A stretch of DNA of 64,000 nucleotides from Patescibacteria group bacterium (GTDB lineage: Bacteria; Patescibacteriota; Patescibacteriia; UBA9570): positions 66,178-130,177 of the forward strand of contig JBAYIY010000002.1 in the NCBI GenBank assembly GCA_041665365.1, in the 5' to 3' direction. The notes under the pieces were generated by a model. That model was not told where the DNA came from and ran no database searches. It was given only the letters and a program-made list of their open reading frames with translations. Made by a program: the position numbers and the translations under genes. This document shows positions 5,574-54,476 of this stretch, one piece after another. How positions within the stretch are numbered: position 1 is the stretch's first letter; every line of letters starts with the position of its first letter.

Positions 5574-5578
5574 AATCT

Positions 5579-17451: not shown

Positions 17452-17469
17452 GAAAACGTGGCTATTCTA

Positions 17470-20476: not shown

Positions 20477-20484
20477 AACAAAAT

Positions 20485-20528: not shown

Positions 20529-20541
20529 GTATAAATGTGTC

Positions 20542-35365: not shown

Positions 35366-35406
35366 AATTACGTAGAGACGTGCCGCCGGCACGTCTCTAC
35401 GTAATT
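35366..35406. repeat. Palindromic element P1 of the GTAGAGACGT family, between the fusA stop and the tuf promoter
   Basis: AATTACGTAGAGACGTGCCG-c-CGGCACGTCTCTACGTAATT, 20-bp perfect arms. It is not followed by a U-run. Confidence 0.8.
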
Positions 35407-35409
35407 GTA

Positions 35410-37575
35410 TTATTTACTGCGTTTCTCGATTAATTCCAACTGTACATGGCGCGGAACCTCACTATATTGCTTGAATTCCATAGAAGAAGACGCTCGACCT
35501 TGTGTCATAGATCGTAAAGAGGTGGCATAACCGAACATTTCTGATAACGGTACCAAAGCTGTAATGATTTTGGCTTGTCCACGATCGGTCATTTCCAAAA
35601 TTTGGCCTCGCTTGGAGTTTAAATCGCCAATCACATCACCCATGAAATTTTCTGGTGTGGTGACAACTATCGACATAATCGGCTCGAGAATAACTGGATC
35701 GGCTTTTTTACAGGCATCTTGGAAGGCAATAGATCCGGCCATTTTAAAGGCTAATTCAGATGAATCGACTTCATGATAGCTACCATCGGTCACCGTGGCC
35801 TTGATATTTAACATAGTATATCCAGCTACTACTCCCCTAGTCAGGGCTTCTTTAATACCCTTTTCGATCGGACTGATGTATTCACGAGGAATACGACCAC
35901 CTTTAACCGCATCAACAAACATAAAGGTAATGTCTTTACCAACATTTTTCCCTTTGTCTTTATCCTTATCTTTGCTTTTTTCTTCACGATCAGCATCGGT
36001 CAGCGGTTCAACAGTTAGAAAACAATGACCATATTGCCCACGACCACCGGTTTGCTTAATATATTTTCCCTCCGCCTCAGCGCGTTTACGAATCGTTTCT
36101 TTATATGATACTTGAGGTGCACCCACATTGGCTTCCACACCAAATTCTCGTTTCATACGATCAACTAAAACATCGAGATGTAATTCACCCATACCGGCAA
36201 TAATGGTTTGACCGGTTTCTTCGTTACTTTCCACACGGAAAGTAGGGTCTTCTTCACTCAATTTCTGTAAAGCCACACCCATTTTTTCTTGATCAACCTT
36301 AGTTTTTGGCTCAATCGCCATTGAAATTACCGGCTGAGCAAAAGTAATCTTTTCAAGAATCAATGGATGATCTGGGTCACATAAAGTATCAGCTGTTATG
36401 GTATCTTTCAAACCAATCACAGCAGCAATATCTCCCGCTTGTACCTCATTAATTTCTTCACGTTTATTAGCATGCAACCGCACAATTCGAGAAATACGCT
36501 CTTTGCTGCCACTGGTGGCGTTAAAGACGTATGAACCTGAGGTTAATTTACCCGAATAAACCCGAATAAATATCAATCGACCAACAAACGGATCGGTGGC
36601 CACTTTAAACGCCAAAGCAGCTAATGGAGCTGATTTATCCGGACGTAATTCAATTTCCTTCTCATTATCGTCATAATCATGTGCCATCAGGGGTGGTTTA
36701 TCTAATGGTGATGGTAAATAACTAGCTACTGCATCCAGTAATAACTGAACACCCTTATTTTTCAACGCACTGCCGCACAACACCGGAATCAGCTGATTTT
36801 TAATAACCGCTTGACGTAAAGTTTTTTTAATACTATCAATGTCCGGTTCTTTACCGTCTAAATAAGCATTCATTAATGTTTCATCTTGTTCGACCACTGC
36901 TTCGACTAATTTAGCTCGATATTCAGCTGCTTTGGCCTTTAAATCATCAGGAATGTCAATAATTTGAACATCTTTACCTAAATCATCATTATAAATAACG
37001 GCATGATTTTCAATTAAATCGATGACACCTTTAAAATTATCTTCCACACCAATTGGCAATTGAATTGGCACAGCCAGTTTACTGAGGCGTTCGTGAATGG
37101 AGGCTAAATCTTTATAGAAATCAGCTCCGGTACGATCTAATTTATTGATAAAGCACATGCGCGGCACACTATATTTTTCCGCTTGGTGCCACACTGTTTC
37201 TGATTGTGGTTCAACGCCAGCGACACCATCAAATACCACTACCCCACCGTCTAACACACGTAATGATCTTTCCACTTCAACAGTAAAATCAACGTGACCT
37301 GGTGTATCAATTAAATTGATCCAAGTTTGGCCGGTGCCTAAAAATTTAGGATACGGCCAAAATACGGTAGTAGCAGCAGCTGTAATAGTAATACCACGTT
37401 CTCGTTCTTGCTCCATCCAGTCCATTTCGGCTAATCCTTCATGAACTTCACCGATTTTATGTTTCTTACCAGCATAAAATAGTACTCGCTCTGAGACGGT
37501 TGTTTTACCTGCATCAATATGAGCAATGATGCCAATGTTACGCACCTGATCTAATTTGAACTCTGAGGTATCCAT
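35410..37575 (-). CDS. fusA: Elongation factor G, with a Lys/Asp-rich insertion
   Basis: GTPase motifs (AHIDAGKTT) plus EF-G domains II-V. The insert is [14 protein letters not shown]. Confidence 0.95.
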
Positions 37576-37666
37576 GTGAAAATAATTTTATCTAATAATT
37601 TACAGAGTCATACCTTACCAAATGCTTATTAAAATGTAAAGATATTACATAAAACTGTCAAAACAT

Positions 37667-37708
37667 AAAACAAGTAGAGACATGCCATGGCATGTCTCTA
37701 CTTGTTTT
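37667..37708. terminator. Palindromic element P2, which acts as the terminator of the DYNY-repeat gene. A further half-copy lies at 37713-37724.
   Basis: AAAACAAGTAGAGACATGCC-ATGG-CATGTCTCTACTTGTTTT, with T-runs on both strands. Confidence 0.75.
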
Positions 37709-37744
37709 TAATGCGTCTCTACAGTTGTATTAATGCAAAAAAAA

Positions 37745-38191
37745 TTATTTCTGTACTACTCCGGCTGGTTTACCACCAATATTCTTGCGTTTGATAACGA
37801 AGAAATAGATGATCGCGGCAATTGGACCAAAGCCAAAGAAAAAACCAGCAATCAATATCACCATCCACAATGTCTTGTTGTCAAAAGTGCGTTTGGCACA
37901 ATCTATCACCATCCAGATTTCAAAAACAAATAGCAGTAATCCGATTAAACCACCGATCATTGCGATGATAATAAACACAATGCCTAATCCAGCAGCGGCT
38001 ACGCCAGCTGAAGAATCACTGTTGTAATCATAATTGTAGTCTGTGTTGTAGTCATAATTATAATCTGTATTATAATCGTAGTTATAATCACTGTTGTAAT
38101 CATAACTGACTGCCTGACCAGCATGAGCAAACGCTAACACTGGCAACACCAAGCCTAAACTCAGTGCGAAATTGCGAAATAATTTGAGCAT
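37745..38191 (-). CDS. Membrane protein with a signal peptide, a (DYNY)n repeat and a PLDc_N-like two-helix domain. It is inserted between rpsG and fusA.
   Basis: 148 aa: SYDYNSDYNYDYNTDYNYDYNTDYNYDYNSD, then WMVIDCAKRTFDNKTLWMVILIAGFFFGFGPIAAIIYFF. Confidence 0.65.
   Translation of the reverse strand: MLKLFRNFALSLGLVLPVLAFAHAGQAVSYDYNSDYNYDYNTDYNYDYNTDYNYDYNSDSSAGVAAAGLGIVFIIIAMIGGLIGLLLFVFEIWMVIDCAKRTFDNKTLWMVILIAGFFFGFGPIAAIIYFFVIKRKNIGGKPAGVVQK
38018..38105. repeat. Tandem 12/24-nt nucleotide repeat encoding the DYNY repeats
   Basis: ACTGTTGTAATC ATAATTGTAGTC TGTGTTGTAGTC ATAATTATAATC ...; about 3.5 copies of a 24-nt unit. Confidence 0.8.
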
Positions 38192-38230
38192 AAAAACGCT
38201 TTTTGTGCGTTAAAAATTAAATAGACTGTA

Positions 38231-38236
38231 ATTATA
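38231..38236 (-). promoter_or_regulatory. Extended -10 element (TGGTATAAT) upstream of the DYNY-repeat gene
   Basis: Minus-strand CTGGTATAATTACAG lies about 35 nt upstream of the ATG. Confidence 0.4.
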
Positions 38237-38242
38237 CCAGTT

Positions 38243-38707
38243 CTAGGCAAAATGAGCAAATGCACGATTGGCTTCGGCCATGCGGTGCACATCCATTTTC
38301 TTCTTAATGGCTTCACCTTGTTCACTAGCGGCATCCATTAACTCTAAAGCTAATTTTTCAGCCATTGGTTTACCTTTTCTACTTCTGGCAGCACCAATAA
38401 TCCAACGTGAAGCCAGATTAAAACGACGCTCACCTCTTACTTCGATAGGCACTTGATAATTAGCACCCCCAATGCGGCGAGCCTTTACTTCAACTAACGG
38501 TGAGACATTTTTAATGGCTTTATCGAATACATCTAAGCCTTTTTCACCCATTTTCTTCTCGATTGCTGCCATGGCACCATAAAACAAACTCTGCGCCACA
38601 GACTTCTTACCGTTCTGCATTAAATAATTGATAAACTTAGCCACGACAGTGCTGTTATACACTGGATCAGATAATATTTCACGACGGACAGCTGGTTTTC
38701 CACGCAT
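38243..38707 (-). CDS. rpsG: 30S ribosomal protein S7
   Basis: S7 profile. Confidence 0.9.
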   Translation of the reverse strand: MRGKPAVRREILSDPVYNSTVVAKFINYLMQNGKKSVAQSLFYGAMAAIEKKMGEKGLDVFDKAIKNVSPLVEVKARRIGGANYQVPIEVRGERRFNLASRWIIGAARSRKGKPMAEKLALELMDAASEQGEAIKKKMDVHRMAEANRAFAHFA

Positions 38708-38710
38708 AAA

Positions 38711-39130
38711 TTATTTTTTAGGTCGTTTCGTACCGTATAAAGACCGACTGCGGTTACGCTTCTCTACTCCGGCAGTATCATAGACACCGCGCACAATATG
38801 ATAACGTACACCCGGCAGATCATGTACCCGACCACCACGAATTAAAACAATGGAGTGTTCTTGTAAGTTGTGCCCTTCACCTGGAATATAAGCAGTTACT
38901 TCCATGCCATTTGATAAACGCACCCGAGCAATCTTACGCAAAGCTGAGTTCGGCTTCTTTGGTGTAGTAGTGGTTACTTTAGTGCAAACACCACGTTTAA
39001 ACGCGCTCCCTTTCGGTAAATCCTTCCGCCGACGTTGGATGACATTAAACGTACTCAACAAAGCTGGCACTTTAGATTTGTGCTTTGTCTTCTTGCGGCC
39101 TTTTCTGGCTAACTGATTAATTGTTGGCAT
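38711..39130 (-). CDS. rpsL: 30S ribosomal protein S12
   Basis: [13 protein letters not shown]...[10 protein letters not shown] is the S12 signature. Confidence 0.95.
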
Positions 39131-39166
39131 AGCGCGCGTTACTGTACCAGATAGTACTTTTAACTG

Positions 39167-39805
39167 TCAAATCAACCCGAATAAACTATAAACACTAACA
39201 AAGGCAAATTGCATAAGCCAACCTAAAATACCCTGACCAAAAAACACCACGATTAGCAATAACCACGGACCCTGCGTTTCCAAAAACAATATTGTAGTTT
39301 GGTGGCTTGGACCCAACAAACTAAACAGCACTTTTGAGCCATCTAATGGCGGAATTGGAATGAGATTAAACACAAATAACATGAGGTTTAATTCTGCCAT
39401 AAAAAGTAAGAAAACCTCTAATAAATTGCCAGTTTCTGACCAATCTAGGGCTGCAAAACCAAGTAAGCGATACAGTAATAAGGCTATCACCACCATAATA
39501 ATATTAGATAACGGACCGGCTATGGCCACGATGGCACTACCCCACTTTCTAAATTTGAGATTATAGGGATTAAACGGGGTTGGTTTTCCCCAGCCAAAAC
39601 CTACTAACAGCAACAAAATAAAACCCATCCAATCAATGTGGGCGAGTGGGTTTAAAGTTAGTCGACCAGAGCGTTGGGCAGTGTCATCACCTTGCCAGTA
39701 ACCGGCCAAGGCATGAGCAAACTCATGCCAACCGATCGCTAACAACACAGCCAGAATCCATGGCACTATAAAAAGTGGCTTCTCAGTTAATAACTGAAAA
39801 AACAT
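39167..39805 (-). CDS. Site-2 protease family (peptidase M50) membrane zinc metalloprotease
   Basis: HEFAHAL (HExxH) within a TM helix; multiple TM segments. Confidence 0.75.
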   Translation of the reverse strand: MFFQLLTEKPLFIVPWILAVLLAIGWHEFAHALAGYWQGDDTAQRSGRLTLNPLAHIDWMGFILLLLVGFGWGKPTPFNPYNLKFRKWGSAIVAIAGPLSNIIMVVIALLLYRLLGFAALDWSETGNLLEVFLLFMAELNLMLFVFNLIPIPPLDGSKVLFSLLGPSHQTTILFLETQGPWLLLIVVFFGQGILGWLMQFAFVSVYSLFGLI

Positions 39806-39807
39806 AA

Positions 39808-40089
39808 TTAATCCAAATCGAAGGTTACATCACCGTCTTTGAGGTGGCACTGGCAGGCTAAGCGTTGCTCTGGATAAGCATTCAACACCTCTAGTGTATC
39901 TTTTTCTTGATCGGTTTTATCAGTTAAATTTTCCGCGCCTTTTTTAATTGATATTAAACAGGTACCACATAAACCATTCTCACATCCAAATGGTAAAGTT
40001 AACCCATTATGTTGGCAAACTTCACGTAGTAATTCTCCCGCTTGAGCTTCGACTGTTTTATTATCTGTAATGAATGTTACTTTAGGCAT
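39808..40089 (-). CDS. 2Fe-2S ferredoxin
   Basis: CENGLCGTC...CQC gives a plant-type Cys pattern; 93 aa. Confidence 0.75.
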   Translation of the reverse strand: MPKVTFITDNKTVEAQAGELLREVCQHNGLTLPFGCENGLCGTCLISIKKGAENLTDKTDQEKDTLEVLNAYPEQRLACQCHLKDGDVTFDLD

Positions 40090-40091
40090 GG

Positions 40092-41277
40092 TTAAATGAT
40101 CTTATATTTCTTACCTAATTTGGTAAAAGCAGCCACGAGTGTATCAATTTGCTCAGTGGTGTGCAAGGCTGAAATTTGCACACGGATTCTGGCCTTGCCC
40201 ATGGGTACTACTGGATAACTAAAACCAACGACATAGATACCTTCCGCTAACATGTCTTTCGCCATATCACCGGCCGCTTTACCATCACCTATCATCACTG
40301 GCACAATTGGATGTTCTGAAACAGGTACAGTAAAACCAGCTTGCTGCATTAAATTTCTAAAGTGCAGCGTATTTTTCCATAATGTCTCACGCAGTTCGGG
40401 ATGTTGATCGATATAATCCAACACAAACATGGTCACAGTGGCAATCATCGGTGATAGTGAATTAGTAAACAAAGTAGTGCGTGCGCGTTGGTGATATAAA
40501 TCAATCATAGCTTTACTGCCAACCAAGGCGCCGCCATTAGACCCACCTAGAGCCTTACCAAACGTGGTGGTGATCAAATCGACTCTATCCAGCACACCGG
40601 CTTGTTCAATGCTGCCTCGGCCAGTTTGACCCATAAAACCTGAGGCATGGGAATCGTCTACTACTACATAAGCATCATACTTTTCAGCCAGATCGCAGAT
40701 ACCCTGCAGTGGCGCCACATCACCATCCATGCTGAACACACCATCGGTAACAACACAGCGCAATCTTTTACTCTGCGTATCTTTTAAATGTTGCTCAAGA
40801 TCAGCTAAATTCATGTGTTTAAAAATATGCCGCTCGGCTTTACACAGACGTATCCCATCAATCAAACTGGCATGATTCAATTCATCGGTAATCACGGCGT
40901 CCTGATCGGTCAATATAGTAGCAAACGCTGCTTCGTTGGCATCCCAACATGACGTAAAAGTGATCGCCGCTTCTTTATGAAACCACTGTGCCAGTTTGAC
41001 TTCTAGCTCTTGATGAATGGTCTGTGTACCGCAAATAAACCGCACACTGGATAGTCCAAAACCGTACTTTTCCAAAGCCTGTTTGCCCACTTCGACTAAC
41101 TCTTGCTTACCCGATAAACCTAAATAATTATTGGCACAAAAATTCAAATATTCTTTTCCGTCAACCACTACTTTTGTCCCCTGCCGTGAACTAATCACGC
41201 GTTGAGTTTTGGTTAAACCAGCCTGGTTTATTTCTGATAGAACTTGATTACAAACTTCGTTGAGACGTTGATTCATA
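40092..41277 (-). CDS. kbl: 2-amino-3-ketobutyrate CoA ligase (glycine C-acetyltransferase). ATG start taken at 41277; the track uses TTG at 41309.
   Basis: PLP-dependent alpha-oxoamine synthase fold (TFGKALGG with the PLP-binding Lys). It is paired with the upstream tdh. Confidence 0.8.
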
Positions 41278-41300
41278 TGGTTATTATAATAATCTTTCTT

Positions 41301-41382
41301 TACCCCCAACCCCCTTGCAGGGGGCTAAGAGAAGATTTTTTTTATTCTATCTTTTCCCCCTGCAAGGGGGACTAAGGGGGTA
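41301..41382. promoter_or_regulatory. G/C-rich tandem hairpin element in the tdh-kbl intergenic region
   Basis: TACCCCC...[CCCCCTTGCAGGGGG]CTAAG...T8...[CCCCCTGCAAGGGGG]ACTAA GGGGGTA. There are two 5-bp G/C hairpins, each followed by CTAAG, enclosed by the outer pair TACCCCC/GGGGGTA. Confidence 0.4.
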
Positions 41383-41414
41383 AATATTAGTTGGTAGATA
41401 AGATACGGTTCGTG

Positions 41415-42548
41415 TCAATTTTGCACATCAAAAATTAATTTTGGATAATCGCGCATGCGTTGTTCCATGAGTTCGGGTGTATATTCAGAAAATTTAATGA
41501 CCGTATCTTTACCACCATTGAGAATTATATTCCAAATTTTATCTTGGACACCGTTAGACTTGTCAGATAACACACTATCAATCGTTTGCCAGGTTTTGAA
41601 AATCTGTCGACCAATCACACAATGCAACGTTAAACCCTTCATGATCATGCCGGAAAATTTGTTGATCGTAAAATCGCCGTCTTTGATACCGAATAAAATC
41701 ACCTCTCCGCCAAACCGGGTAGTGGCGATGCAATTATTCACCGATGAGTTAAAACCAGCCATTTCCATAGTGATATCAGCCCCTCGACCAGCGGTGAGTT
41801 TCAACACCTCAGCACAAGCCTGACTATCCCCTTTTGGCTGAATTAACACTGTCTGGTGAGCGCCTAATTGTTTAGCAATATCCAGATTATGTTGGTTGGT
41901 ATCAACTCCAATTACTTGGCTAGCTCCAAACTGACGCGCCAATAAAATGGCAAACATACCAATTTGCCCACAGCCATAAATGACCACCTGTTTACCGCGC
42001 ACATCTACCTTACTTAAACTGTGTACGGCATTACCAAATGGATCACAAATCGCAGCAATTTCCGGACGTAATTTTGTCAGATCAATCGGCCACAGATTTT
42101 TGGCAGGTAAGTTTACTTGTTCGGCAAAAATACCATCGGTGCTGATACCTAAAATGGCTTGATCCTGACATACTTCCGCTTCACCTAACTTGCACTGATA
42201 ACAGTTTCCACAGGTAACATGTGAATCACCTGACACTGTATCTCCAACCTTAATACCATATAATTTTTCTACTTGCTCGCCCGCTGCTGTGACCTCACCG
42301 ACAAACTCGTGTCCTAAAATACGCAACGTTTTATGCTGTTTGTCTAGTGAATTGGCAAATACTTCAGAAAAAGCGACGCGATTCCAAATGCCACGATCTG
42401 ACCCACAGACACCGGCATATTTAACTTTTACCAGCACATGGGTAGCTTCGGTTAATGTCGGCACCGCAATTGGCCGTTTGATGAAGCCTTTTGATGTACT
42501 CCAACCGTCTTGTTTAAGATCTAATGTGAGAGCTTGAATATTAGTCAT
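41415..42548 (-). CDS. tdh: L-threonine 3-dehydrogenase (Zn-dependent MDR family)
   Basis: GHEFVGEV, GDSHVTCGNCYQCKLG and the Rossmann motif GCGQIG. It is in an operon-like pair with kbl. Confidence 0.8.
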   Translation of the reverse strand: MTNIQALTLDLKQDGWSTSKGFIKRPIAVPTLTEATHVLVKVKYAGVCGSDRGIWNRVAFSEVFANSLDKQHKTLRILGHEFVGEVTAAGEQVEKLYGIKVGDTVSGDSHVTCGNCYQCKLGEAEVCQDQAILGISTDGIFAEQVNLPAKNLWPIDLTKLRPEIAAICDPFGNAVHSLSKVDVRGKQVVIYGCGQIGMFAILLARQFGASQVIGVDTNQHNLDIAKQLGAHQTVLIQPKGDSQACAEVLKLTAGRGADITMEMAGFNSSVNNCIATTRFGGEVILFGIKDGDFTINKFSGMIMKGLTLHCVIGRQIFKTWQTIDSVLSDKSNGVQDKIWNIILNGGKDTVIKFSEYTPELMEQRMRDYPKLIFDVQN

Positions 42549-43623
42549 GCACCAGAGTATACAACAACTCTACATTTTTCGCGAGATCAGATATTTTGAT
42601 ATATTCATCTACGGTATGTAAATTACAGCCGCCTGTACCAATATTTACAGCTTTAATCCCATGTTTAATAAACGTATTGGCATCCGTTGAACCAACACAA
42701 GCCACTAAATTTGGTACAATATTCAAATCGGTCATGACACTCATGACATGTTTGAGTAATAGATCAGATTTTTTTAACTTATACCCATCCACCGCCACAT
42801 TACTGCATAATTCCAGTAATCCACCATATGTTTCACAAGCATCTTGCAAGGTTTTACTCATGTGCTCAATTTGATCTTCTATTTTCCGTTTGGAAAAACT
42901 GCGCGCCTCACCATGCAGAAAAACTTCAGCTGGAATAGAATTACGAATACTACCACCAGTAATGATACCAATATTAGCTGTAGTTGTTTGATCAATTCGT
43001 CCTAGTTTCATATGGTGAATGGCTGTAGCCGCAATTTTAATCGCACTGATGCCCTTTTCCGGATCAACCCCTGAATGAGCCGCTTTACCACGAATGTTGA
43101 CCCGAATATCGGCTAAATATGCCGAATGGTAATCTAGCTCACCAACGCCGCCTCCATCTATCACATAAGCGACCGGTGCATGAATCTGACTAAAATCCAA
43201 CGCCGCCGCTCCTTCAGAAAAAGTTTCTTCACTGGTGGTAAAAATAATCTCCAAGGGTGGATGTTTTACACCACGTTCTTTTAAAAGCGTGATGGCTTCA
43301 ATAATTTCAGCAATCCCCGCTTTATCATCAGCGCCCAATACGGAGGTACCATCGGTTTGAATCACATCACCCCGCACGACCGGCCGGATGCGCTGGCATG
43401 GCTGAACAGTATCCATATGCGCATTTAACAACAACGGCACCCCTTTACCCGGCAGATATCCAATTAGGTTTCCGGCTTTATCCACTTTGGTTTTTACACC
43501 CAGGGCGGTTAAATCTTTTTTGATCACCCGACTCAAAGCCGCCTCGTGGTGTGATGGGCTAGATATTTTGACATATTTTAAAAATGTTTTTACGAGACGG
43601 GTCATGTTGGTATGATAACACAA
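42541..43623 (-). CDS. Peptidase M20 family, peptidase T-like (tripeptidase)
   Basis: LNAHMDTV and the metal-ligand pattern of M20/PepT. The start may be MTRLVKT at 43605. Confidence 0.7.
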   Translation of the reverse strand: MCYHTNMTRLVKTFLKYVKISSPSHHEAALSRVIKKDLTALGVKTKVDKAGNLIGYLPGKGVPLLLNAHMDTVQPCQRIRPVVRGDVIQTDGTSVLGADDKAGIAEIIEAITLLKERGVKHPPLEIIFTTSEETFSEGAAALDFSQIHAPVAYVIDGGGVGELDYHSAYLADIRVNIRGKAAHSGVDPEKGISAIKIAATAIHHMKLGRIDQTTTANIGIITGGSIRNSIPAEVFLHGEARSFSKRKIEDQIEHMSKTLQDACETYGGLLELCSNVAVDGYKLKKSDLLLKHVMSVMTDLNIVPNLVACVGSTDANTFIKHGIKAVNIGTGGCNLHTVDEYIKISDLAKNVELLYTLVHD

Positions 43624-43658
43624 AATTTATATTGATGATTTTATTGTTTAATAATTTC

Positions 43659-43683
43659 AAAAAAAATAACCCCTCTCATGGGG
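43659..43683 (-). terminator. Rho-independent terminator for the high-GC minus-strand cassette
   Basis: Minus strand CCCCATGAGAGGGG followed by TTATTTTTTTTG. It is preceded by an 8-bp-stem hairpin at 43692-43730. Confidence 0.5.
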
Positions 43684-43737
43684 TAGGTTGGCCAGGGAGG
43701 AGTGCGTCGTGCTGCACTTCAACTCCCTGGCTTGGGA

Positions 43738-44052
43738 TCAGCAACCCATGCTGGGCTGCTGACTTCCCCGCTTCGGCGGTGGCGGGGGTGGCGACCCGAT
43801 GTCGAAATCATCGACCTCGGCGTCGTCGTATCCATCAGTGTCGTCATCGACGGGGTTGCCGTCGATGTCGGTGTCGTCATCACCGTCCATTGGATGGGAC
43901 GGTCGACGCGGCGGAGCAGTGAACTCCACCGCATCATCGTCCACCCGTGGGGGCGGCAGCCGGGGAGGCGACTCCTCCGGCTTTTTCGGTTCTGTTTTTT
44001 TGGGAGCTTCGGGGAGAACGTCCCCGATCTCCCACGAGCCGTTGTAGCACAT
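43738..44052 (-). CDS. Small acidic Pro/Asp-rich protein of unknown function, in the high-GC islet
   Basis: 104 aa: ...PPRVDDDAVEFTAPPRRPSHPMDGDDDTDIDGNPVDDDTDGYDDAEVDDFDIGSPPPPPPKRG. Codons are GC3-rich. Its ATG is 3 nt after the upstream ORF stop. Confidence 0.45.
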   Translation of the reverse strand: MCYNGSWEIGDVLPEAPKKTEPKKPEESPPRLPPPRVDDDAVEFTAPPRRPSHPMDGDDDTDIDGNPVDDDTDGYDDAEVDDFDIGSPPPPPPKRGSQQPSMGC

Positions 44053-44055
44053 CGG

Positions 44056-44232
44056 TCACCTCTCCTTTTCTTCGAATTTTTCGTTCATCTTCCGGAACGT
44101 TTCGGCATGTACCGGGTGATAGCCCGACACGTACTGACCGTTCGCGGTTTTGAAGTAGAAGGGCACGTTCGTACCCTTTTCACACAGGGCCGTAACCCCG
44201 TTTTTGGTTACTTGTTCCAACATTTCGTCCAC
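44056..44232 (-). CDS. Small ORF (55-58 aa) of unknown function in the high-GC islet; below the 60-aa track threshold
   Basis: (V)DEMLEQVTKNGVTALCEKGTNVPFYFKTANGQYVSGYHPVHAETFRKMNEKFEEKER. GGAGA lies 9 nt before the GTG at 44232; there is an ATG at 44223. Confidence 0.4.
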   Translation of the reverse strand: MDEMLEQVTKNGVTALCEKGTNVPFYFKTANGQYVSGYHPVHAETFRKMNEKFEEKER

Positions 44233-44379
44233 GATGTTGTCTCCAGAACACAGGAATCTGAATGACCCCTCTCCTTGATGTCACAAATCTTGTGGTAGCA
44301 AGGAAAAAAGTCAGTAGAAATGGTTGGTCGGCGGAGCGTATCACGTGCTCAACACCGACCAGTTTTTTTTGGGGGCGAC

Positions 44380-44553
44380 TCAGTCACCCCCGTAACCCGT
44401 GCCGATCCAGCGCGGATCGGTGTCGACCGGCTCGGTGGCCGGTTTCGGCGGGGAACGACGACGCTGCGGCGGCTGGGGTGGCGGGTTCCACCCTCCGTCG
44501 TGAGAATTATCAGGGATCGGGCGACGACGAGGTTCACGTTCTTCGGTCGGCAT
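44380..44553 (-). CDS. Small Pro/Arg-rich ORF (57 aa) in the high-GC islet; below the track threshold
   Basis: MPTEEREPRRRPIPDNSHDGGWNPPPQPPQRRRSPPKPATEPVDTDPRWIGTGYGGD. A GGAGAG ribosome-binding site lies just upstream. Codons are GC3-rich. Confidence 0.4.
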   Translation of the reverse strand: MPTEEREPRRRPIPDNSHDGGWNPPPQPPQRRRSPPKPATEPVDTDPRWIGTGYGGD

Positions 44554-44599
44554 GGTCTCTCCTGGGACACAGAGATCTCCATGATCTCTTTCCCTGACA

Positions 44600-45235
44600 A
44601 CACAACAAAATTATTGATTGGTGTGTTTTCAGTGAAAGAGGTTGGATGAGAGTTTTTTAAAGAAACCCTCTAAAACTTTGCCCCTTTTGGGGGCGCTCTC
44701 GCGTCACGGGACACCTCCTGGGATCAGATGATCCCGGTTGTCCAAACCGCAGGCTAGCGGCAGGAGCTGGCTACTGACTTTTATTCACATCTCCGGTTAC
44801 ACCTCCCTAGCCCTCCTATTGTAGGAGGGAATAAGAACAACCTATCTTACTCCCTTCCTAGAATAGGAAGGGTTGGGGAAGGTGTACACAGAAATGATTT
44901 AAGTTCAGCACTCAGCTCCCGGCTAATACAGCGGCCGGAACATATCTACGTTATCCTTTACTGATTGTCAATGAACCATTGAAATATCTACTAAAAATCC
45001 CGCTGGGTAAGCGGGTTAGACATTTCTGGATTCAACCTAGATTTCCTCTGCATCTAGTTGTATGTCTGTACCCGCTGACTTGGTGTAATAGTAGAACGAC
45101 GCACAATGAGTGTGAGAGATTTTACTGTTAATTTCCAAGTTTGCGTGTACAGCATACTTGGCGACCAGACTACACAATGATTAAAATTTTGTAAAGTATT
45201 ATTGTACGTAGTTATCCACAGACGGTGAAATTAAA
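44600..45235. other. About 640 bp of non-coding sequence of intermediate GC content, with several stable hairpins. It may be a structured RNA or the leader of the high-GC cassette.
   Basis: No ORF of 60 aa or more. Hairpins include CCCTCCTAttgTAGGAGGG, CCCTTCCTAgaaTAGGAAGGG (both enclosed by ACACCTCC/GGAAGGTGT), GGGATCAGATGATCCCGG and CCCGCTGGGTAAGCGGG. Confidence 0.35.
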
Positions 45236-45278
45236 CCGGTAGAGACGTGCCGGCGGCACGTCTCTACCGGTTTAATTT
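45228..45278. repeat. Palindromic element P3 (GTAGAGACGT family), overlapping the trpG-like stop. It is terminator-like.
   Basis: AAATTAAACCGGTAGAGACGTGCCGGCGGCACGTCTCTACCGGTTTAATTT followed by TTTTTT. It is the reverse-orientation twin of P1. Confidence 0.8.
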
Positions 45279-45844
45279 TTTTGTTCAAGAACATTACGTA
45301 TCATTTTTAGACCGTAATGCGGGTTAGTTAATATAGATTCAGGATGAAACTGTACACCTGTGATGGATAAACTTTTATGGCTAATACCCATCACAATATT
45401 ATCTTTAGTTTTAGCGGTGACAACAAAACAATCTGGTACATAATCAGCGGCTAAAGAATGATAGCGACCGACCAATAATGTTTTTGGTAAACCCTGAAAT
45501 ATACCTGAACCATCATGGGTAATAACAGAACCTCGCCCATGCACTGGCTTGGGTAACACTTGTAAGCTGCCACCAAAAGCTTCAAGCATGGCTTGCATGC
45601 CTAAACACACACCAAATTGCGGAATGACTCCGGAAAACTTTTTTATGTAAGTTAGTAGCTTCCCCGCTTGAGCTGGGTTACCCGGGCCAGGTGAATAGAC
45701 TAATAAATCTGGTTTTAGTTTTTTAATAACACTGACCGGAGTAGTATTATTTTTCACAATCACTTTTGCTCGACATTGGCGCAAATAGGCTACCAAGTTA
45801 TACGTAAAAGAATCGTGATTATCAATCAACCCGATGGTTTTCAT
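45272..45844 (-). CDS. Glutamine amidotransferase class I (anthranilate / aminodeoxychorismate synthase component II-like)
   Basis: GVCLGMQAM (catalytic Cys) plus the His/Glu region (QFHPES). Confidence 0.75.
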   Translation of the reverse strand: MKTIGLIDNHDSFTYNLVAYLRQCRAKVIVKNNTTPVSVIKKLKPDLLVYSPGPGNPAQAGKLLTYIKKFSGVIPQFGVCLGMQAMLEAFGGSLQVLPKPVHGRGSVITHDGSGIFQGLPKTLLVGRYHSLAADYVPDCFVVTAKTKDNIVMGISHKSLSITGVQFHPESILTNPHYGLKMIRNVLEQKN

Positions 45845-45864
45845 AAATATTCCAATATACTAGA

Positions 45865-46329: not shown

Positions 46330-46694
46330 TTGTGCAAAAGAGATTTAACCTTATCCACCACTTCTTGCGGTGTATGATTGGCTTTAATAAAATAATCCAC
46401 CGCACCTAACTCACGACCTTTGCGCACATCCTCCTCTTGGCCCAAATTGGTGAGTAAAATTACTGGGATCTTGGCTGTGGTTGGATCCTTTTTAAGTTTT
46501 TTTAAAGCCACAAAACCATCCATTTTTGGCATGATAACATCCAACAGTATCACGTCTGGATGTTCACTGGTGGCTAACTGCATACCATCGGCACCATTAT
46601 AGGCCGACAATATTTCGAACCCTTGGGTTTTAAACTTCCGGGTATACATCCCATGAAGCATTTCGTCGTCTTCGACTAATAGTACTTTATACAT
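46326..46694 (-). CDS. Single-domain response regulator receiver (CheY-like)
   Basis: VLLVEDDEMLHGMY...ILLDVIMPKMDGF gives the D-D-K receiver pattern. There is no output domain and no kinase nearby. Confidence 0.8.
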   Translation of the reverse strand: MYKVLLVEDDEMLHGMYTRKFKTQGFEILSAYNGADGMQLATSEHPDVILLDVIMPKMDGFVALKKLKKDPTTAKIPVILLTNLGQEEDVRKGRELGAVDYFIKANHTPQEVVDKVKSLLHK

Positions 46695-46699
46695 ATCTT

Positions 46700-48109
46700 T
46701 CAGTATATCACCTGCTCTACCATTCGTCCAACCCGCAACAACTTACTTTCACTCCACTGTGGCCCAATAATCTGCACACCCACCGGTAAATTATCAACAC
46801 TTCCCGCTGGCACTACTAAAGCTGGTACCCCGGCTAAAGATGGTGGAATAGTATAAACATCTTCCAAATACATTTGTAAAGGATCTTGGCTGTTCGCACC
46901 AATCACAAAGGCCGTACCCGGACACGGTGGTGTCATTAACACATCTACCTTTTTAAACGCTTCTGTAAAATCTTGCCGCACCAAACTGCGCACTTTCATC
47001 GCTTTGAGATAATAGGCATCATAATAACCAGACGATAAGGCATAAGTACCTAACATGATGCGCCGTTTCGCCTCGGCGCCAAACCCCTCTCCCCGACTGT
47101 TCATATAAACACTTAGTAAATCGGTGGTGTTATTACTCCGAAAACCATATCTAATACCATCAAAGCGCGCTAAATTTGAACTAACTTCTGATGGCACTAA
47201 TATATAATAACTGGGCATGGCATAGGACGTATGTGGCATGTCTACCTCTATTACCTCAGCACCTTGTTTACTTAACTGATTCACTAAGTCATGCACTATT
47301 TTCTTCACGGCCGGATTTAAACCGTCAATTTCTAAATATTGTTTGGCTAGACCTATTTTTAGTTGGCTTATGGGTTGTTCAAGATTTTCAGTGTAATTAA
47401 CCACTAAGTTTTCTGGCACGTTACTATCATGTTGATCTGGCCCGGCGATGGTTTCCATAATCATGGCTAAATCCTCGACTGATTCAGTTAAAGGGCCAAC
47501 TGTATCAAATGATGACGCCATGGGAATAACTCCATAACGTGGTACCAAACCATACGTTGGGCGCATACCCACGACACCACAAAATGAAGCTGGCTGACGA
47601 ATTGAACCTCCTGTATCACTACCAAAAGCAAAAGGTGCTAATGAAGCCGCCACGGCCGCCGCCGAACCACCAGACGAACCACCAGCCACGCGAGTAATAT
47701 CAGCTGGATTTTTAGTTACCCCGAAACATGAGTTTTCAGTAGATGAACCCATGGCAAATTCATCGGCATTAGTTTTGCCCAACAACACTGCACCGGTTAA
47801 CCGATTTATAACTGTAGCAGTATAGGGTGGTTTGTAGCCACGTAAAATATTTGAACAAGCTGTGGTCTCAATATCTTTTACACAATAAATATCTTTGGCA
47901 GCATAAGGAATTCCGGTAAATAAAGATTGTTTACCGGCTTGAATAAGTTTATCGGCTGCAGTGGCTTGCTGTAAGGCTAGTTCTTCTGTTACTAAAACAT
48001 AAGCGTTCAACGCAGGATTTTTTTCTTTAATCTGTGTTAAATATTCGGTCGTTAACTTGGTGGCAGTAGTTTGACCACTATCTAATTGTTCACGCAGTTG
48101 TTTTAACAT
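46700..48109 (-). CDS. gatA: Glutamyl/aspartyl-tRNA amidotransferase subunit A
   Basis: Amidase signature (GGSSGGSAAAVAA) and the Ser-cisSer-Lys triad region. Confidence 0.9.
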   Translation of the reverse strand: MLKQLREQLDSGQTTATKLTTEYLTQIKEKNPALNAYVLVTEELALQQATAADKLIQAGKQSLFTGIPYAAKDIYCVKDIETTACSNILRGYKPPYTATVINRLTGAVLLGKTNADEFAMGSSTENSCFGVTKNPADITRVAGGSSGGSAAAVAASLAPFAFGSDTGGSIRQPASFCGVVGMRPTYGLVPRYGVIPMASSFDTVGPLTESVEDLAMIMETIAGPDQHDSNVPENLVVNYTENLEQPISQLKIGLAKQYLEIDGLNPAVKKIVHDLVNQLSKQGAEVIEVDMPHTSYAMPSYYILVPSEVSSNLARFDGIRYGFRSNNTTDLLSVYMNSRGEGFGAEAKRRIMLGTYALSSGYYDAYYLKAMKVRSLVRQDFTEAFKKVDVLMTPPCPGTAFVIGANSQDPLQMYLEDVYTIPPSLAGVPALVVPAGSVDNLPVGVQIIGPQWSESKLLRVGRMVEQVIY

Positions 48110-48389
48110 GGATACTTTTTACTTTAATGTGTCCCTCGGCTGTTTCAATGGCACTGGCTAACATCTGGTCACGGGTAAATTCATCGGTTATGTCATCTGG
48201 CCGAAGTCTATTCGATAAACCGGTGACACTGGCCGTTGGTACTACCCCAGTTGTGTCTAACTGATTGAGTTGATCAACATAATCTAAAATCCGCGATAGT
48301 TCTACCTGAAACTGTTTTACTTCAGTCTCAGTTAAAGAGATGCGCGCTAAATGGCTGATTCTGATTACTTCGTCATGAGATAAAGCCAT
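48090..48389 (-). CDS. gatC: Glutamyl/aspartyl-tRNA amidotransferase subunit C
   Basis: 99 aa with the GatC profile (ISHLARISLTETEV...); directly upstream of gatA. Confidence 0.8.
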   Translation of the reverse strand: MALSHDEVIRISHLARISLTETEVKQFQVELSRILDYVDQLNQLDTTGVVPTASVTGLSNRLRPDDITDEFTRDQMLASAIETAEGHIKVKSIHVKTTA

Positions 48390-48394
48390 GGCGA

Positions 48395-51181
<2,787 letters not shown>

Positions 51182-51192
<11 letters not shown>

Positions 51193-51760
51193 ACTGTCTG
51201 GTGGTTAAAAATGTCTGTAATTTATATATTTGGCTCGCATCTTTGACACTATGTCCGGTGATTAATATCATGACACTTGGCTGATAATTAATATTCAAGG
51301 TTGGATCAGTTGGATTAGTCTGGGGGTAAATATAGAAAGACAAAGCATCGATCACTACATCGTTATGCACGGAAGTTGTGATCGGTGTGTCTATATCAGT
51401 CGCCACATTTTTTCTGATCACCTGGCCACCCATTAAAAAATAGCGATATGTTACCACCCCACCGGTGTCTGACACAGCTAAGTACAGATCATTCACCGGA
51501 TTCACCAGTGGTATAATTGTATAACTAGAATAGGATATTTCAGCGCTAGTCATTTGACTGGCTAAAGTTTCTAGAAAAAAATTCATCTCTTCTTGCACAT
51601 GTTGAGTATCAATCCCAGTGAGTGGTTTACGTAATGCTAAAATAAATAAATTAACCGTGACAGCCATCACCGTAGCAAACAGCGCCGCCGCAACGAGTAA
51701 TTCAACCAAGGTAAACCCTTTACGATTGTGCATATTTCCAATCATATAACTGTTCTTCAA
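51182..51760 (-). CDS. Type IV minor pilin (prepilin-type N-terminal cleavage/methylation domain)
   Basis: KGFTLVELLVAAALFATV is the prepilin motif. Confidence 0.7.
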
Positions 51761-52370
51761 TCACCCGACTGTGGGTACTACCATGACTCTCCCATTGTAC
51801 TTCGGCTTTTACTTGTATGCCAATCTGCTGCGATAACGAACCACAATTTTGCTCGTCAGCCGATAATAAAACTTGTGTCACACCACCATCGGTTGAACAG
51901 ATCGGATAAAGGGTGACAAACCGACGATACGGTGTGGTTGTCCAACCACTTCCGGGCGGAGCCAAAAATTGACGATAGAGCCCCGCTCCATTTTGATAAA
52001 TAGTCGCTTGTGTCGCTGTAATACTATCTGATGTAAAATCTAAACTCAGAGCCGTTCCAGGATCACTTAAAGTTTGTTTCCATAAATAGATACCAGTATA
52101 ATCATCTGTTTCAGTGCCACTATGCAGCCCATCATCATACACAACCGTTAGACCATTGTCTCGCTTTAGCCAATTACTATCTCGAATAAACCGTACCGCT
52201 TCCACATTTTCACGCGCCAAATATAAAGCTACGACATCTTGTACCGTAGTATTTGAAGAGGCTTGCGCATTAACTAAAGTGGTGATTAATGTCACCAAAC
52301 CGGTGATAATAATAGTAATCGATAATAACACTTCAATTAATGTTTGACCAACTGAGAGAGAACGATGCAT
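51720..52370 (-). CDS. Type IV minor pilin (PilV-like)
   Basis: GQTLIEVLLSITIIITGL is a prepilin-like N-terminus. Confidence 0.65.
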   Translation of the reverse strand: MHRSLSVGQTLIEVLLSITIIITGLVTLITTLVNAQASSNTTVQDVVALYLARENVEAVRFIRDSNWLKRDNGLTVVYDDGLHSGTETDDYTGIYLWKQTLSDPGTALSLDFTSDSITATQATIYQNGAGLYRQFLAPPGSGWTTTPYRRFVTLYPICSTDGGVTQVLLSADEQNCGSLSQQIGIQVKAEVQWESHGSTHSRVIEEQLYDWKYAQS

Positions 52371-52374
52371 AACT

Positions 52375-52899
52375 TTATTCTATCACAGCCACCGCTGGAT
52401 ATACTTTAATTGTAGAAACAGTCATAGATTTTGGTTCACGGACAGTGAGGATAATGGTATTCGGGTCTAATCCACCGTTATACAATACACTATGGTCTGA
52501 ACTGGTATTAAATTTTATTATACAATCACCTGTTGTACTGACATCGCCATTTTGCTCACACGATAAAACAATGACATTATCCTGTAAAATGGTAGTACTG
52601 AGTGTAGTTGTATCGGCTATTTGTTGTACGGTGCTGCTACCTAATGTAATAGATATACCATAAGCGGTGGGCATAATACCACCACAACAGCTTTGCCCGG
52701 TAAAGGCTTTGGTTCTGGCTAAAATCAATTCGGCACGCACTACATCACTACCATTTTCCAAAGCTTGGGAGGGAGATAAACGCCTCACCTGCATAACAAC
52801 GCCCAATGTTATCACAATTAAAATCGCCAGTGTGACAACTAACTCAACTATAGTGAACCCACTGGGTTGATGTTTAGATTGGCAATTTAAGAAATGCAT
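52375..52899 (-). CDS. Type IV minor pilin / pseudopilin
   Basis: SGFTIVELVVTLAILIVITL is the prepilin motif. Confidence 0.7.
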   Translation of the reverse strand: MHFLNCQSKHQPSGFTIVELVVTLAILIVITLGVVMQVRRLSPSQALENGSDVVRAELILARTKAFTGQSCCGGIMPTAYGISITLGSSTVQQIADTTTLSTTILQDNVIVLSCEQNGDVSTTGDCIIKFNTSSDHSVLYNGGLDPNTIILTVREPKSMTVSTIKVYPAVAVIE

Positions 52900-53647
52900 A
52901 CAAATACCAGTGAACTATTTGATTACCCCATAAAAGTGCTACAACACCGGCTCCGGTTAAAAATGTGCCGAATGGTAATGCATCACCCATTTTTTTTGAT
53001 TTTATTAATAATAATGGTAAGGCTACCAACGCTCCAGCGACGTACGCTAAAAACAAACAGACCACAATGTTTGGCCAGGCTAACATCACACCCAACATCA
53101 CTCCTAAACGAATATCCCCACTCCCCACCCACCGACCTTTTGATAACACATATTGTGCCAAAAATATTCCACCACCTAAAGCCACACCCACACCAATATC
53201 AAACATAGACCCACCCAACAACACCTGACCAATTAGAGCAATAACCATACCAGATAGAGAAAAAACATCTGGTATGGTACTAAACAGATAATCCGATAAA
53301 AATATAGCTAGACAAATTGATACTAAAATCAAGTAAATAGTTAGACGGACGGGGTCGGTATAAAAAAATATCCCTAATAAAATAAATAATCCGGCTGTTA
53401 CCGCTTCAACTAATGGATACTGTACGGAAATTGATTGCTGACAAAATAAACATCTCCCGCGTAATCCAATGTATGATAATAACGGTATTAAGGTATACCA
53501 ATATAAAGTGTGATGGCAATGTGGACACTGTGATCGACCCTGTAATGATTGGGATTGATTGATCCGTAATACTGTTGCATTTACAAAACTGCCAATGGCC
53601 AAACCGGTTAGAGCCAAAAAAACGATGACAAAAATGGTTATATCCAT
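52874..53647 (-). CDS. pilD: Prepilin peptidase (A24 family). The start is probably MDITIF at 53647. The track start at 53701 falls inside palindrome P5.
   Basis: GSFVNATVLRI, a C4 Zn motif (CPHCHH...CLFC), and catalytic Asp-containing TM segments. Confidence 0.8.
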   Translation of the reverse strand: MDITIFVIVFLALTGLAIGSFVNATVLRINQSQSLQGRSQCPHCHHTLYWYTLIPLLSYIGLRGRCLFCQQSISVQYPLVEAVTAGLFILLGIFFYTDPVRLTIYLILVSICLAIFLSDYLFSTIPDVFSLSGMVIALIGQVLLGGSMFDIGVGVALGGGIFLAQYVLSKGRWVGSGDIRLGVMLGVMLAWPNIVVCLFLAYVAGALVALPLLLIKSKKMGDALPFGTFLTGAGVVALLWGNQIVHWYLYAFLKLPI

Positions 53648-53684
53648 GAGGAGATTATACCACATAAAATCATTAGGGAGGCGA

Positions 53685-53726
53685 AAAACCAGTAGAGACA
53701 TGCCATGGCATGTCTCTACTGGTTTT
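53685..53726. terminator. Palindromic element P5, acting as the terminator after major pilin gene pilA-1
   Basis: AAAACCAGTAGAGACATGCC-ATGG-CATGTCTCTACTGGTTTT with T-runs on both sides. It is almost identical to P2. Confidence 0.75.
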
Positions 53727-53743
53727 ATTAATATTTGGATTTC

Positions 53744-54271
53744 TTAATCCGACAAACAATACATTGGATCGACACAATCTAATGCGACGGCACTGTTACC
53801 ATCAGATGATATAAAACTGACTGGGGCTTCCCAACCAGCATCAGCAACGGCATAGGCGTTATCATCATCACCATTTAAGGCATTATGATCAGTTTGTTCT
53901 AATTCTACCGCGACAAAATACTCGATTCCGGCTGCATTAGTGCCATAAGTGTATACATATGGGCTAGTATTAGTCGGATCGATTGGTAAAGCGGTTGTGT
54001 AAGGATCGAGTGATGTGCCAAATTCAGTCCAGGTGGTGTTATTAACATCATCGGTTAATGGGTAAGTGTTGTTTTCTCTATAATATATCTCTACCGCATT
54101 CTGAATTTGTTTCACATCAGCTAACCGTTTGGTATCCCGCGCTTTACGTTGCGCCGTAGTTAATGAAACTATAGCTAAAGTGGCTAATAAACCAATAATC
54201 GCGATCACGATTAAAAGTTCGATCAAGGTAAAACCTTGAGTTTGGTCAGTTTGTGTCCTCTTAAAGGTCAT
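53744..54271 (-). CDS. pilA: Type IV pilin (major pilin, PilA-like), copy 1
   Basis: TQGFTLIELLIVIAIIGLLATLAIVS is the class III signal peptide. Confidence 0.85.
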   Translation of the reverse strand: MTFKRTQTDQTQGFTLIELLIVIAIIGLLATLAIVSLTTAQRKARDTKRLADVKQIQNAVEIYYRENNTYPLTDDVNNTTWTEFGTSLDPYTTALPIDPTNTSPYVYTYGTNAAGIEYFVAVELEQTDHNALNGDDDNAYAVADAGWEAPVSFISSDGNSAVALDCVDPMYCLSD

Positions 54272-54300
54272 AACAGATTTGTTATTGATTAATTGCTGTG

Positions 54301-54327
54301 ATTATAGCATAAATGTGAAAAAGACAA
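54301..54327 (-). promoter_or_regulatory. Sigma70-type promoter for pilA-1
   Basis: Minus strand: TTGTCT, a 15-nt spacer, then TGCTATAAT (perfect -10 with TG), about 30 nt upstream of the ATG. Confidence 0.5.
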
Positions 54328-54434
54328 AAGGATCGCTGAAAAGATGAAGGGTCTGAAAACGCTGAAGAAGATTTATTTATATTACATTCTTTTTCAGCGT
54401 TTTCATGTCTTATTCATCTATTCAGCGATCCTTT
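54327..54434. repeat. Long imperfect inverted repeat (arms of about 45 nt, loop of 18 nt) between the two pilin paralogs
   Basis: AAAGGATCGCTGAAAAGATGAAGGGTCTGAAAACGCTGAAGAAG ... CTTTTTCAGCGTTTTCATGTCTTATTCATCTATTCAGCGATCCTTT. Confidence 0.7.
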
Positions 54435-54447
54435 CCCACAAAAACCA

Positions 54448-54476
54448 ACAGAGACGCCCCACCGGGACGTCTCTGT
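54448..54476. terminator. Palindromic element P6 (GAGACG variant), the terminator after pilA-2
   Basis: ACAGAGACGCCCCACCGGGACGTCTCTGT followed on the minus strand by GTTGGTTTTTG. Confidence 0.7.

Follow-up and report, generated by a model that had tools for sequence, protein, structure and literature searches.

Palindromes in a Patescibacteria genome, probably double-foot REPs of the subclass 2.4 TnpA_REP type, at gene ends and in frame in ligA

Results

A Family of Palindromes Dispersed over 19 kb

The stretch of DNA analyzed here, termed the window, comprises 64,000 nucleotides (nt) of a Patescibacteria group bacterium (contig JBAYIY010000002.1 of assembly GCA_041665365.1) and carries a dispersed family of palindromes lying among genes that are nearly all on the minus strand, including fusA, tuf, ligA, pilD, and pilin genes. 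The palindromes are probably double-foot repetitive extragenic palindromes (REPs), of the type that is the cognate repeat of the subclass 2.4 TnpA_REP proteins, which correspond to RAYT group 4 (RAYT, REP-associated tyrosine transposase). Five perfect palindromes (36-51 nt), two degenerate variants, and one half-copy span ~19 kb (35.3-54.5 kb), and pattern scans found no family copies in the other 45 kb of the window. The members and the gene hosting two of them are as follows.

35366-35406: P1, double-foot REP, stem of 20 with a 1-nt centre, AATTAC-GTAGAGACGTGCCG-C-CGGCACGTCTCTAC-GTAATT
37667-37708: P2, double-foot REP, stem of 21 without a centre, AAAACAA-GTAGAGACATGCCA joined to TGGCATGTCTCTAC-TTGTTTT
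37713-37724: half-copy, GCGTCTCTACAG, right arm only, 5 nt after P2
45228-45278: P3, double-foot REP, stem of 25 with a 1-nt centre and an 11-nt outer arm, AAATTAAACCG...CGGTTTAATTT
48395-50386, minus strand: ligA (NAD-dependent DNA ligase), hosting two in-frame REP insertions
48612-48639: variant REP, GTAAAGACGCGAAATTTCGCGTCTTTAC, arms GTAAAGACGCGAAA and TTTCGCGTCTTTAC, foot GTAA...TTAC, a degenerate relative
48759-48794: P4, double-foot REP, stem of 18 without a centre, CCCT-GTAGAGACGTTGCA joined to TGCAACGTCTCTAC-AGGG
53685-53726: P5, double-foot REP, stem of 21 without a centre
54448-54476, minus strand: P6, degenerate relative, ACAGAGACGCCCC-ACC-GGGACGTCTCTGT, tail TGGTTTTTGT

The stem motif GTAGAGACRT is matched 10 times in the window, forming five inverted pairs, compared with 0.21 matches expected from dinucleotide-preserving shuffles, and GTAGAGAC is matched 11 times compared with 0.81 expected, the eleventh match being the half-copy at 37715-37722. 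The count within the window is far above chance, and the family with a shared stem proposed in an earlier reading of the letters (the sequence-only reading) is borne out with the coordinates of P1-P5 unchanged. The perfect palindromes are confirmed by an inverted-repeat search and by direct reading of the sequence and have long, fully paired stems of 18-25 bp with a centre of 0-1 nt. The GTAG...CTAC foot is present in all of P1-P5 and absent from P6 (ACAG...CTGT) and the 48612-48639 variant (GTAA...TTAC). P6 contains one C.A mismatch on the plus strand, equivalent to G.U on the minus (transcribed) strand, so that from the six perfect copies and one half-copy described previously P1-P5 and the half-copy stand, P6 loses its perfection, and the member at 48612-48639 had been overlooked. 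Folded as RNA, the hairpins have energies of -19 to -41 kcal/mol and z values of -5 to -10.7, with P1 at -31.8 kcal/mol (z -10.7) and P3 at -41 kcal/mol; for P1-P5 the values span -30 to -41 kcal/mol and z -7.7 to -10.7.

The 29-nt cores of P1 and P3 are mutual reverse complements with the central C/G as the sole difference, in agreement with the earlier proposal that they are one element in opposite orientations. P2 and P5 are sister copies, one compensatory pair apart in the outer arm (AAAACAA/TTGTTTT compared with AAAACCA/TGGTTTT). An outer inverted repeat formed by 37644-37658 (ATTACATAAAACTGT) and 37721-37734 (ACAGTTGTATTAAT) encloses P2 and the half-copy, is reached in 8 of 500 shuffles, and suggests a nested insertion into, or a rearrangement of, an older copy. 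Except in these surroundings of P2, symmetry beyond the perfect palindromes is no more than in shuffles, and an apparent inverted duplication beside P4 was rejected. Two further contigs of the same organism, Logan SRR6484324 and JGI 3300037810 (9.0 and 7.1 kb), show no mismatch to the window, and its sequence is therefore no assembly quirk.

Relation to Catalogued REP Systems

The anatomy of the palindromes matches that of a REP type described by Quentin, Siguier, Chandler, and Fichant in 2018 (PMC6006769), in which TnpA_REP proteins of subclass 2.4 (motifs NH[IFV]H, WQ, and YIxNNP, median length 194 amino acids) go with "double foot" REPs having 5' GT[AG]G and 3' C[TC]AC. The accessible part of Table S1 of that work gives GTAGAGACGTTGCATGCAACGTCTCTAC as the REP of a cyanobacterial REPtron (Cyanothece protein ACK69880.1, subclass 2.4, double foot = T), which is letter-identical to the 28-nt core of P4, and gives GTAGAGACGCACGGCCGTGCGTCTCTAC as another double-foot REP of a subclass 2.4 REPtron; the window apex variants GTGCCG-S-CGGCAC and ATGCCA/TGGCAT do not occur in that part of the table. 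The subclass 2.4 REPs and the window copies share the 5' GTAG and 3' CTAC, full pairing along a stem of 12 bp or more, a 4-nt apex, and in-frame placement within genes, in the former including tnpAREP itself, where a REP inserted in the stretch separating the HuH motif from the Y motif with the frame kept is a peculiarity of the subclass (PMC6006769). Subclass 2.4 and the window family alike are spread over Cyanobacteria, Bacteroidetes, Chloroflexi, and scattered phyla. For RAYT group 4 (= subclass 2.4), Bertels et al. 2017 (PMC5581495) report members in 17 classes, with frequent occurrence in Cyanobacteria, Chlorobia, and Caldilineae. The differences are that the host here belongs to Patescibacteria (Candidate Phyla Radiation, CPR), that the cognate gene is absent from the window, and that the perfect window copies bear extra self-complementary outer arms of 4-11 nt. 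The function of these systems is described as not formally elucidated (PMC6006769).

The window family also shares features with the GTAG-tagged REP superfamily of Di Nocera, De Gregorio, and Rocco 2013 (PMC3733652), whose members lie mostly downstream of open reading frames (ORFs) between co-directional or convergent genes, and whose intragenic copies are found above all in genes of replication and repair, a DNA ligase among them. Common to both are the GTAG terminal motif, the location downstream of ORFs, a TAG stop supplied by the REP terminus, and the intragenic copies in replication/repair genes including DNA ligase; the tag is unpaired and at one end in that superfamily, whereas it is paired and at both ends in the window. 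A literature search combining REP or RAYT with Patescibacteria/CPR gave no paper treating REPs or RAYTs in that group, and searches by the sequences GTAGAGACG and CGTCTCTAC led to nothing beyond primers and papers on other subjects. Rfam contains no family for the palindromes, the only matches being weak and to miRNA-like hairpins.

TnpA_REP proteins are relatives of the IS200 transposase and act as HUH/Tyr endonucleases on single-stranded DNA. The Escherichia coli enzyme binds the REP as a folded single strand and, reading GTAG, cuts and rejoins it. The E. coli REP system with its TnpA_REP (RayT, PDB code 4ER8) thus offers an HUH/Tyr enzyme recognizing a folded REP and GTAG, and the protein family associated with the window palindromes (see below) aligns with it over the HuH and Tyr motifs; however, the E. 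coli REPs are imperfect, bulged, single-footed, and arranged in bacterial interspersed mosaic elements (BIMEs), and the protein similarity to 4ER8 is weak (E 0.0066). The REPINs of Bertels and Rainey 2011 (PMC3116915), in which paired REPs form one element, are likewise proposed as non-autonomous, RAYT-mobilized units with 2-fold symmetry, but consist of two separate inverted REP hairpins and a spacer, whereas the window unit is a single 28-nt palindrome. The REPIN of a Nostoc punctiforme RAYT was considered as the same element and rejected as unrelated in sequence. Rickettsia palindromic elements (RPEs) resemble the window family as palindromic repeats inserted in frame in essential genes and differ in having no GTAG foot; we know of no link between RPEs and a RAYT. 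RPE-4 and RPE-6 have been identified with CGTC-tagged repeats, and RPE-1 is a longer palindromic insertion (PMC3733652). From the resemblance to REP/MITE-like or RPE-like elements suggested by the sequence-only reading, the REP part holds through the double-foot anatomy and the catalogued P4 core, whereas RPEs and miniature inverted-repeat transposable elements (MITEs) do not fit, there being no target-site duplications, no internal sequence, and the wrong size.

Distribution across Bacteria

The pattern GTAGAGACRTN(6-14)AYGTCTCTAC, taken from the sequence-only reading and scanned against one genome per species, is matched in at least 120 loci. With an estimated ~20 matches expected in the whole 596-Gb collection, the cross-genome matches are clearly not due to chance. 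Among the matches listed (120 loci, assigned by record title), 76 are from Cyanobacteria, 19 from Bacteroidota, 11 from Chloroflexota, 6 from Acidobacteriota, and 8 from others including Candidatus Uhrbacteria, Desulfuromonas, and Elusimicrobiota, a spread in agreement with the reported range of group 4/subclass 2.4. In 98 of the 129 matches listed, perfect self-complementarity also continues across the unconstrained centre; the most frequent centre there is GTTGCATGCAAC (18 times), exactly that of P4. Arms of 10-14 nt are identical between copies and across at least seven phyla. Degenerate relatives are found in the same loci, including the P6 subtype GAGACGCCCC...GGGGCGTCTC, which is present in loci L014, L037, and L066 of other phyla. 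Sixteen IMG/VR contigs (L205-L220) also contain an exact match to the palindrome pattern, with two in L212.

Association with a RAYT-like Transposase

All ORFs of the 120 listed loci were clustered. The large clusters are kinases, ABC transporters, and glycosyltransferases, and one small cluster joins L023 (Bacteroidales) and L051 (Candidatus Uhrbacteria, CPR), the two of these 120 loci in which a RAYT-like gene is bracketed by family palindromes. The two proteins have an N terminus of M(K/D)GKF(N/K)NKYR, an HuH motif, and a C-terminal tyrosine motif YI(K)xNP, with a weak Pfam match to Y1_Tnp. The NCBIfam family REP-associated tyrosine transposase is the only one to match them, with E values (3.5e-9 and 8.7e-8) that do not reach the curated cut-off. 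A profile built from 15 family members has 4ER8 (E. coli TnpArep) as its best PDB match, with the HuH and Tyr regions aligned, and the family has 3570 homologues at E <= 1e-5, several of which are named RayT by JGI. Gene pairs placed between two palindromes in L021 and L116 were examined as candidate transposases and are ordinary genes.

The link is extended by a metagenome scan in which 64 of the best 80 homologue-encoding loci have family palindromes inside or beside the gene (109 palindromes in total). Typically, one GTAGAGACGCACGG-CCGTGCGTCTCTAC encodes VETHGRASL in frame, with the HuH motif on one side and the Tyr motif on the other, and further copies are placed just up- or downstream. 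The Uhrbacteria-type homologues (NHVH/NHTH/NHIH, WQ in 99 of 119, YIxNNP, median 200 amino acids) match the subclass 2.4 motifs, and in those with an internal repeat the encoded peptide is most often VETLHATSL, which is also what P4 adds to LigA. The Bacteroidales-type homologues (NHLH, FQ, and YIINNP) match these motifs only in part. The L051 gene (253-783, minus strand) contains an in-frame internal REP encoding VETLQCNVST and a sole in-frame stop, TGA, at the conserved W of WQ. The gene may be decaying, or the stop may reflect a single G-to-A change or an error in sequencing. The named homologues closest to this CPR protein come from Bacteroidota (45-53% identity).

In-frame Copies in ligA

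P4 is in frame in ligA and adds 12 residues in the helix-hairpin-helix region (site 1), and the 48612-48639 variant, also in frame, adds 10 residues in the linker before the BRCT domain (site 2). Two reading frames of the REP are open (VET..TSL and RD..VST), and the third has TAG. REP-type peptides are present in 12 of 120 LigA homologues at one or both of the two linkers and in both open frames. At site 2 other ligA orthologues carry GTAGAGAC palindromes, and the mixed frames there suggest more than one insertion event. At site 1 several closer relatives have decayed traces, for example GAGAAAACCCTAGGGCTATCCCTAC in the relative locus L122.

Gene Context of the Palindromes

P1 is placed 4 nt past the fusA stop codon between fusA and tuf, P2 lies between a 148-amino acid ORF and fusA, P3 overlaps the end of a glutamine amidotransferase gene (45272-45844) at its stop codon, and P6 lies between two pilin genes, 27 nt past the stop of the upstream pilin. 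P5 is located between a pilin stop at 53744 and the likely pilD start at ~53647, ~38 nt upstream of that start and just upstream of a -10-like box, TGTGGTATAAT. The overlap of P5 with the pilD start codon, as described previously, is an artefact of the longest ORF, which begins at an ATG inside P5; orthologous PilD proteins begin at Met19 of the window protein, and P5 is therefore intergenic.

On the sense (minus) strand, P2 and P6 are the only copies flagged by a consensus terminator scan. P1, P3, and P5 are flagged on the antisense strand only; the T-rich 3' outer arms of P1, P3, and P5 could serve as U-tracts. The sequence-only reading placed most copies at gene 3' ends with U-runs, as bidirectional terminators. 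P1, P2, P3, P5, and P6 do follow stop codons, with P2, P5, and P6 at terminator positions, whereas P4 and the 48612-48639 variant are inside ligA and the sense-strand signal is limited to P2 and P6. Position and the consensus scan together suggest that the hairpins may act as 3'-end or terminator structures.

Two other features adjoin this subject. The 148-amino acid ORF (37745-38191), directly followed by P2 and the half-copy, belongs to no family, has weak membrane-protein-like matches, and sits between rpsG and fusA in an otherwise standard rpsL-rpsG-fusA-tuf cluster. A perfect palindrome outside the family (20478-20530, 53 nt, stem 26, A/T-rich outer arms) lies between convergent genes and looks like a bidirectional terminator.

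Orthologous Sites in Relatives

The next relatives of the window LigA are 60-70% identical, some being named Candidatus Kerfeldbacteria, and the syntenic loci of two of them (L121 and L122, LigA 66-67% identical) were compared with the window. L122 has no perfect palindrome of at least 9 bp in 22 kb, and L121 has a single family palindrome, inside ligA at the second linker (site 2). Copies are absent from the orthologous sites examined in both relatives with the exception of ligA, where L121 has this site 2 palindrome and L122 the decayed trace at site 1. The pilin-pilD spacer has a hairpin just upstream of a conserved TGGTATAAT box in the window, L121, and L122, formed by three different hairpins with a REP in the window only, which argues for turnover and for the probable use of P5 as a local terminator hairpin. 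The copies are thus not at shared positions in all relatives, which the sequence-only reading had named as the outcome that would mark ancient terminators.

The intergenic hairpins of L121 belong to another family, CCCCCTCTCTCC...GGAGAGAGGGGG. Those at 9950-9974, 17426-17452, 18956-18984, and 19690-19712 have the form CCCC(C)TCTC(TC)C...GGAGAGAGGGG, and very similar hairpins occur in the cyanobacterial loci L002, L065, and L097; they may be a second repeat family common to several phyla.

Other Features of the Window

A G+C-rich island at 43650-44700 (55-60% compared with ~42% in the window) has ORFs overlapping on both strands, among them a 187-amino acid ORF without a Pfam match and Pro/Asp-rich, low complexity ORFs on the minus strand, and could be foreign DNA or a frameshifted gene. 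Between the island and P3, ~580 nt (44650-45230) contain no ORF and several imperfect hairpins, for example 44788-44896; Rfam gives no family for this region even at permissive thresholds, and the stretch may represent a dead gene or a non-coding RNA so far undescribed. Another hairpin, CCCCCTTGCAGGGGG...CCCCCTGCAAGGGGG, stands apart at 41310-41370. By P6, arms at 54327-54348/54413-54434 and 54354-54371/54388-54405 form a nested, imperfect hairpin of 108 nt in the pilin-pilin spacer. A toxin-antitoxin-like DUF6922 and AbiEii gene pair stands beside the type IV pilus cluster just past the 3' end of the window (L204, 601-1487), and in the relative L121 such a pair (4830-5731) lies between pilC and a pilin gene.

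Discussion

The palindromes are read here as double-foot REPs, the cognate repeat of subclass 2.4 TnpA_REP (RAYT group 4), that were spread by a RAYT and then came to serve the host as 3'-end structures or to be tolerated in ligA, a reading given a probability of about 0.85. The proposal of the sequence-only reading that they are a propagating element and not independent terminators agrees with a catalogued REP type tied to a RAYT-type transposase in other genomes. The double foot would present GTAG and a hairpin substrate alike on either DNA strand, and by analogy with characterized enzymes a subclass 2.4 protein acting on folded single-stranded DNA, probably at replication forks, would have spread the copies, the enzyme being resident elsewhere in the genome or since lost. 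To judge from their positions, the inserted hairpins would then have served as 3'-end structures, and the two copies in permissive LigA linkers would have been tolerated as 10-12 extra residues. In view of the RAYT link, type IIS restriction sites (GAGACG/CGTCTC), Xer/dif-like 11-6-11 sites, protelomerase sites, and adaptor artefacts were dropped as explanations.

Several points weigh against this account. No REP is known to have been mobilized in vivo by a RAYT. No RAYT gene is found in the window by tblastn with 241 family members, the matches at 44546-45016 (beside P3, E 6), 50345-50545, and 11233-11475 being spurious without an HuH match, and a third homologue search found none on the 157,178-bp source contig. 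The ligA site 1 insertion is probably old rather than recently mobile because decayed traces of it are present in several relatives. Look-ups with the window PilM and EF-Tu gave only identical contigs of the same organism and no strain variants, and the putative terminator role is suggested by position and the consensus scan. All five perfect window copies extend 4-11 nt past the core in a copy-specific manner, compared with ~8% extending by at least 3 nt among the matches listed elsewhere, and these outer arms are not explained by simple copy-and-paste of a fixed unit. They could stem from A-tract/T-tract terminator hairpins already in place, with the REP inserted at the apex; the non-family palindrome at 20478-20530 is an example of such a hairpin. 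Alternatively, they could derive from hairpin-templated correction. That P2 and P5 have near-identical outer arms speaks for an extended unit being copied, and that those of P1 and P3 differ speaks for insertion into an existing hairpin apex.

The palindromes may be orphan, immobile REP relics, acquired horizontally or spread anciently by a RAYT now lost and retained as RNA or DNA hairpins with the pairing kept by selection or hairpin-templated repair, an account that is possible although on balance doubtful. It accommodates the absence of a RAYT from the window, the sole CPR RAYT found (L051) being apparently decayed, with its stop on the W of WQ and a REP inside the gene, and having Bacteroidota and not CPR proteins as nearest named homologues, the ligA site 1 insertion common to relatives in decayed form, the compensatory pair separating P2 from P5, and the G.U retained on the transcribed strand of P6. 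However, the sister copies P1/P3 and P2/P5 are near identical at different loci, suggesting fairly recent copying, and the part of the genome examined was the 64-kb window. That subclass 2.4 REPtrons moved recently between phyla into CPR, possibly from host or neighbour bacteria, with the repeat then recruited as terminator hairpin and LigA linker peptide and the outer arms arising by apex insertion or hairpin-templated repair, is a more speculative and rather unlikely scenario. Its starting points are a 28-nt REP that is letter-identical in at least seven phyla, against the usual description of REPs as species-specific, and the single CPR RAYT found, whose closest named homologues are those of Bacteroidota.

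Explanations without a RAYT fare far worse. Intrinsic terminators, ancient or evolved independently and alike by coincidence, would suit the position of P1, P2, P3, P5, and P6 just after stop codons, the A/T-rich outer arms of several copies, the flags of the terminator scan, and the existence of the non-family palindrome between convergent genes; they are very improbable given the identity of the 10-14 nt arms between copies and phyla, the two copies within a coding region, the association of the palindromes with RAYT-like genes, and the absence of the copies from orthologous spacers. Just as improbable is a minimal MITE, that is the abutted terminal inverted repeats (GTAGAGACG... termini) of a DDE-type insertion sequence moved in trans. 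The perfect inverted symmetry is compatible with such an element, and Quentin et al. (PMC6006769) note that a double foot could arise via central deletion of an inverted REP dimer, but no copy has internal sequence or direct target-site duplications, and near the 120 listed loci no DDE transposase recurs, the recurrent neighbour being the Y1 HUH protein. Operator sites of a dimeric DNA-binding regulator, which the conserved half-sites with their variable spacer resemble, are the least probable of all, since self-complementarity, for which protein binding has no need, extends to the centres and outer flanks, the copies lie at 3' ends and in ligA and not at promoters, and the identical sequence is found in unrelated phyla.

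The window elements, taken as RAYT-spread double-foot REPs, belong to a REP type that was already catalogued; they extend it by one member from a new host lineage and do not make a new class, and the current understanding of REP biology is unchanged. For annotation of the window, the repeats are to be treated as REPs and not as regulatory sites or artefacts; gene callers should place no pilD start inside a REP and should not take the ligA inserts for errors. The palindromes give a clean example of REP hairpins in terminator positions and absorbed into an essential protein. The reduced genomes of CPR bacteria are usually thought poor in mobile DNA, and the catalogued REP/RAYT subclass is here extended to that radiation. 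The letter-level conservation of the REP across distant phyla is mildly surprising and gives a starting point for asking how strictly the substrate is fixed by a RAYT.

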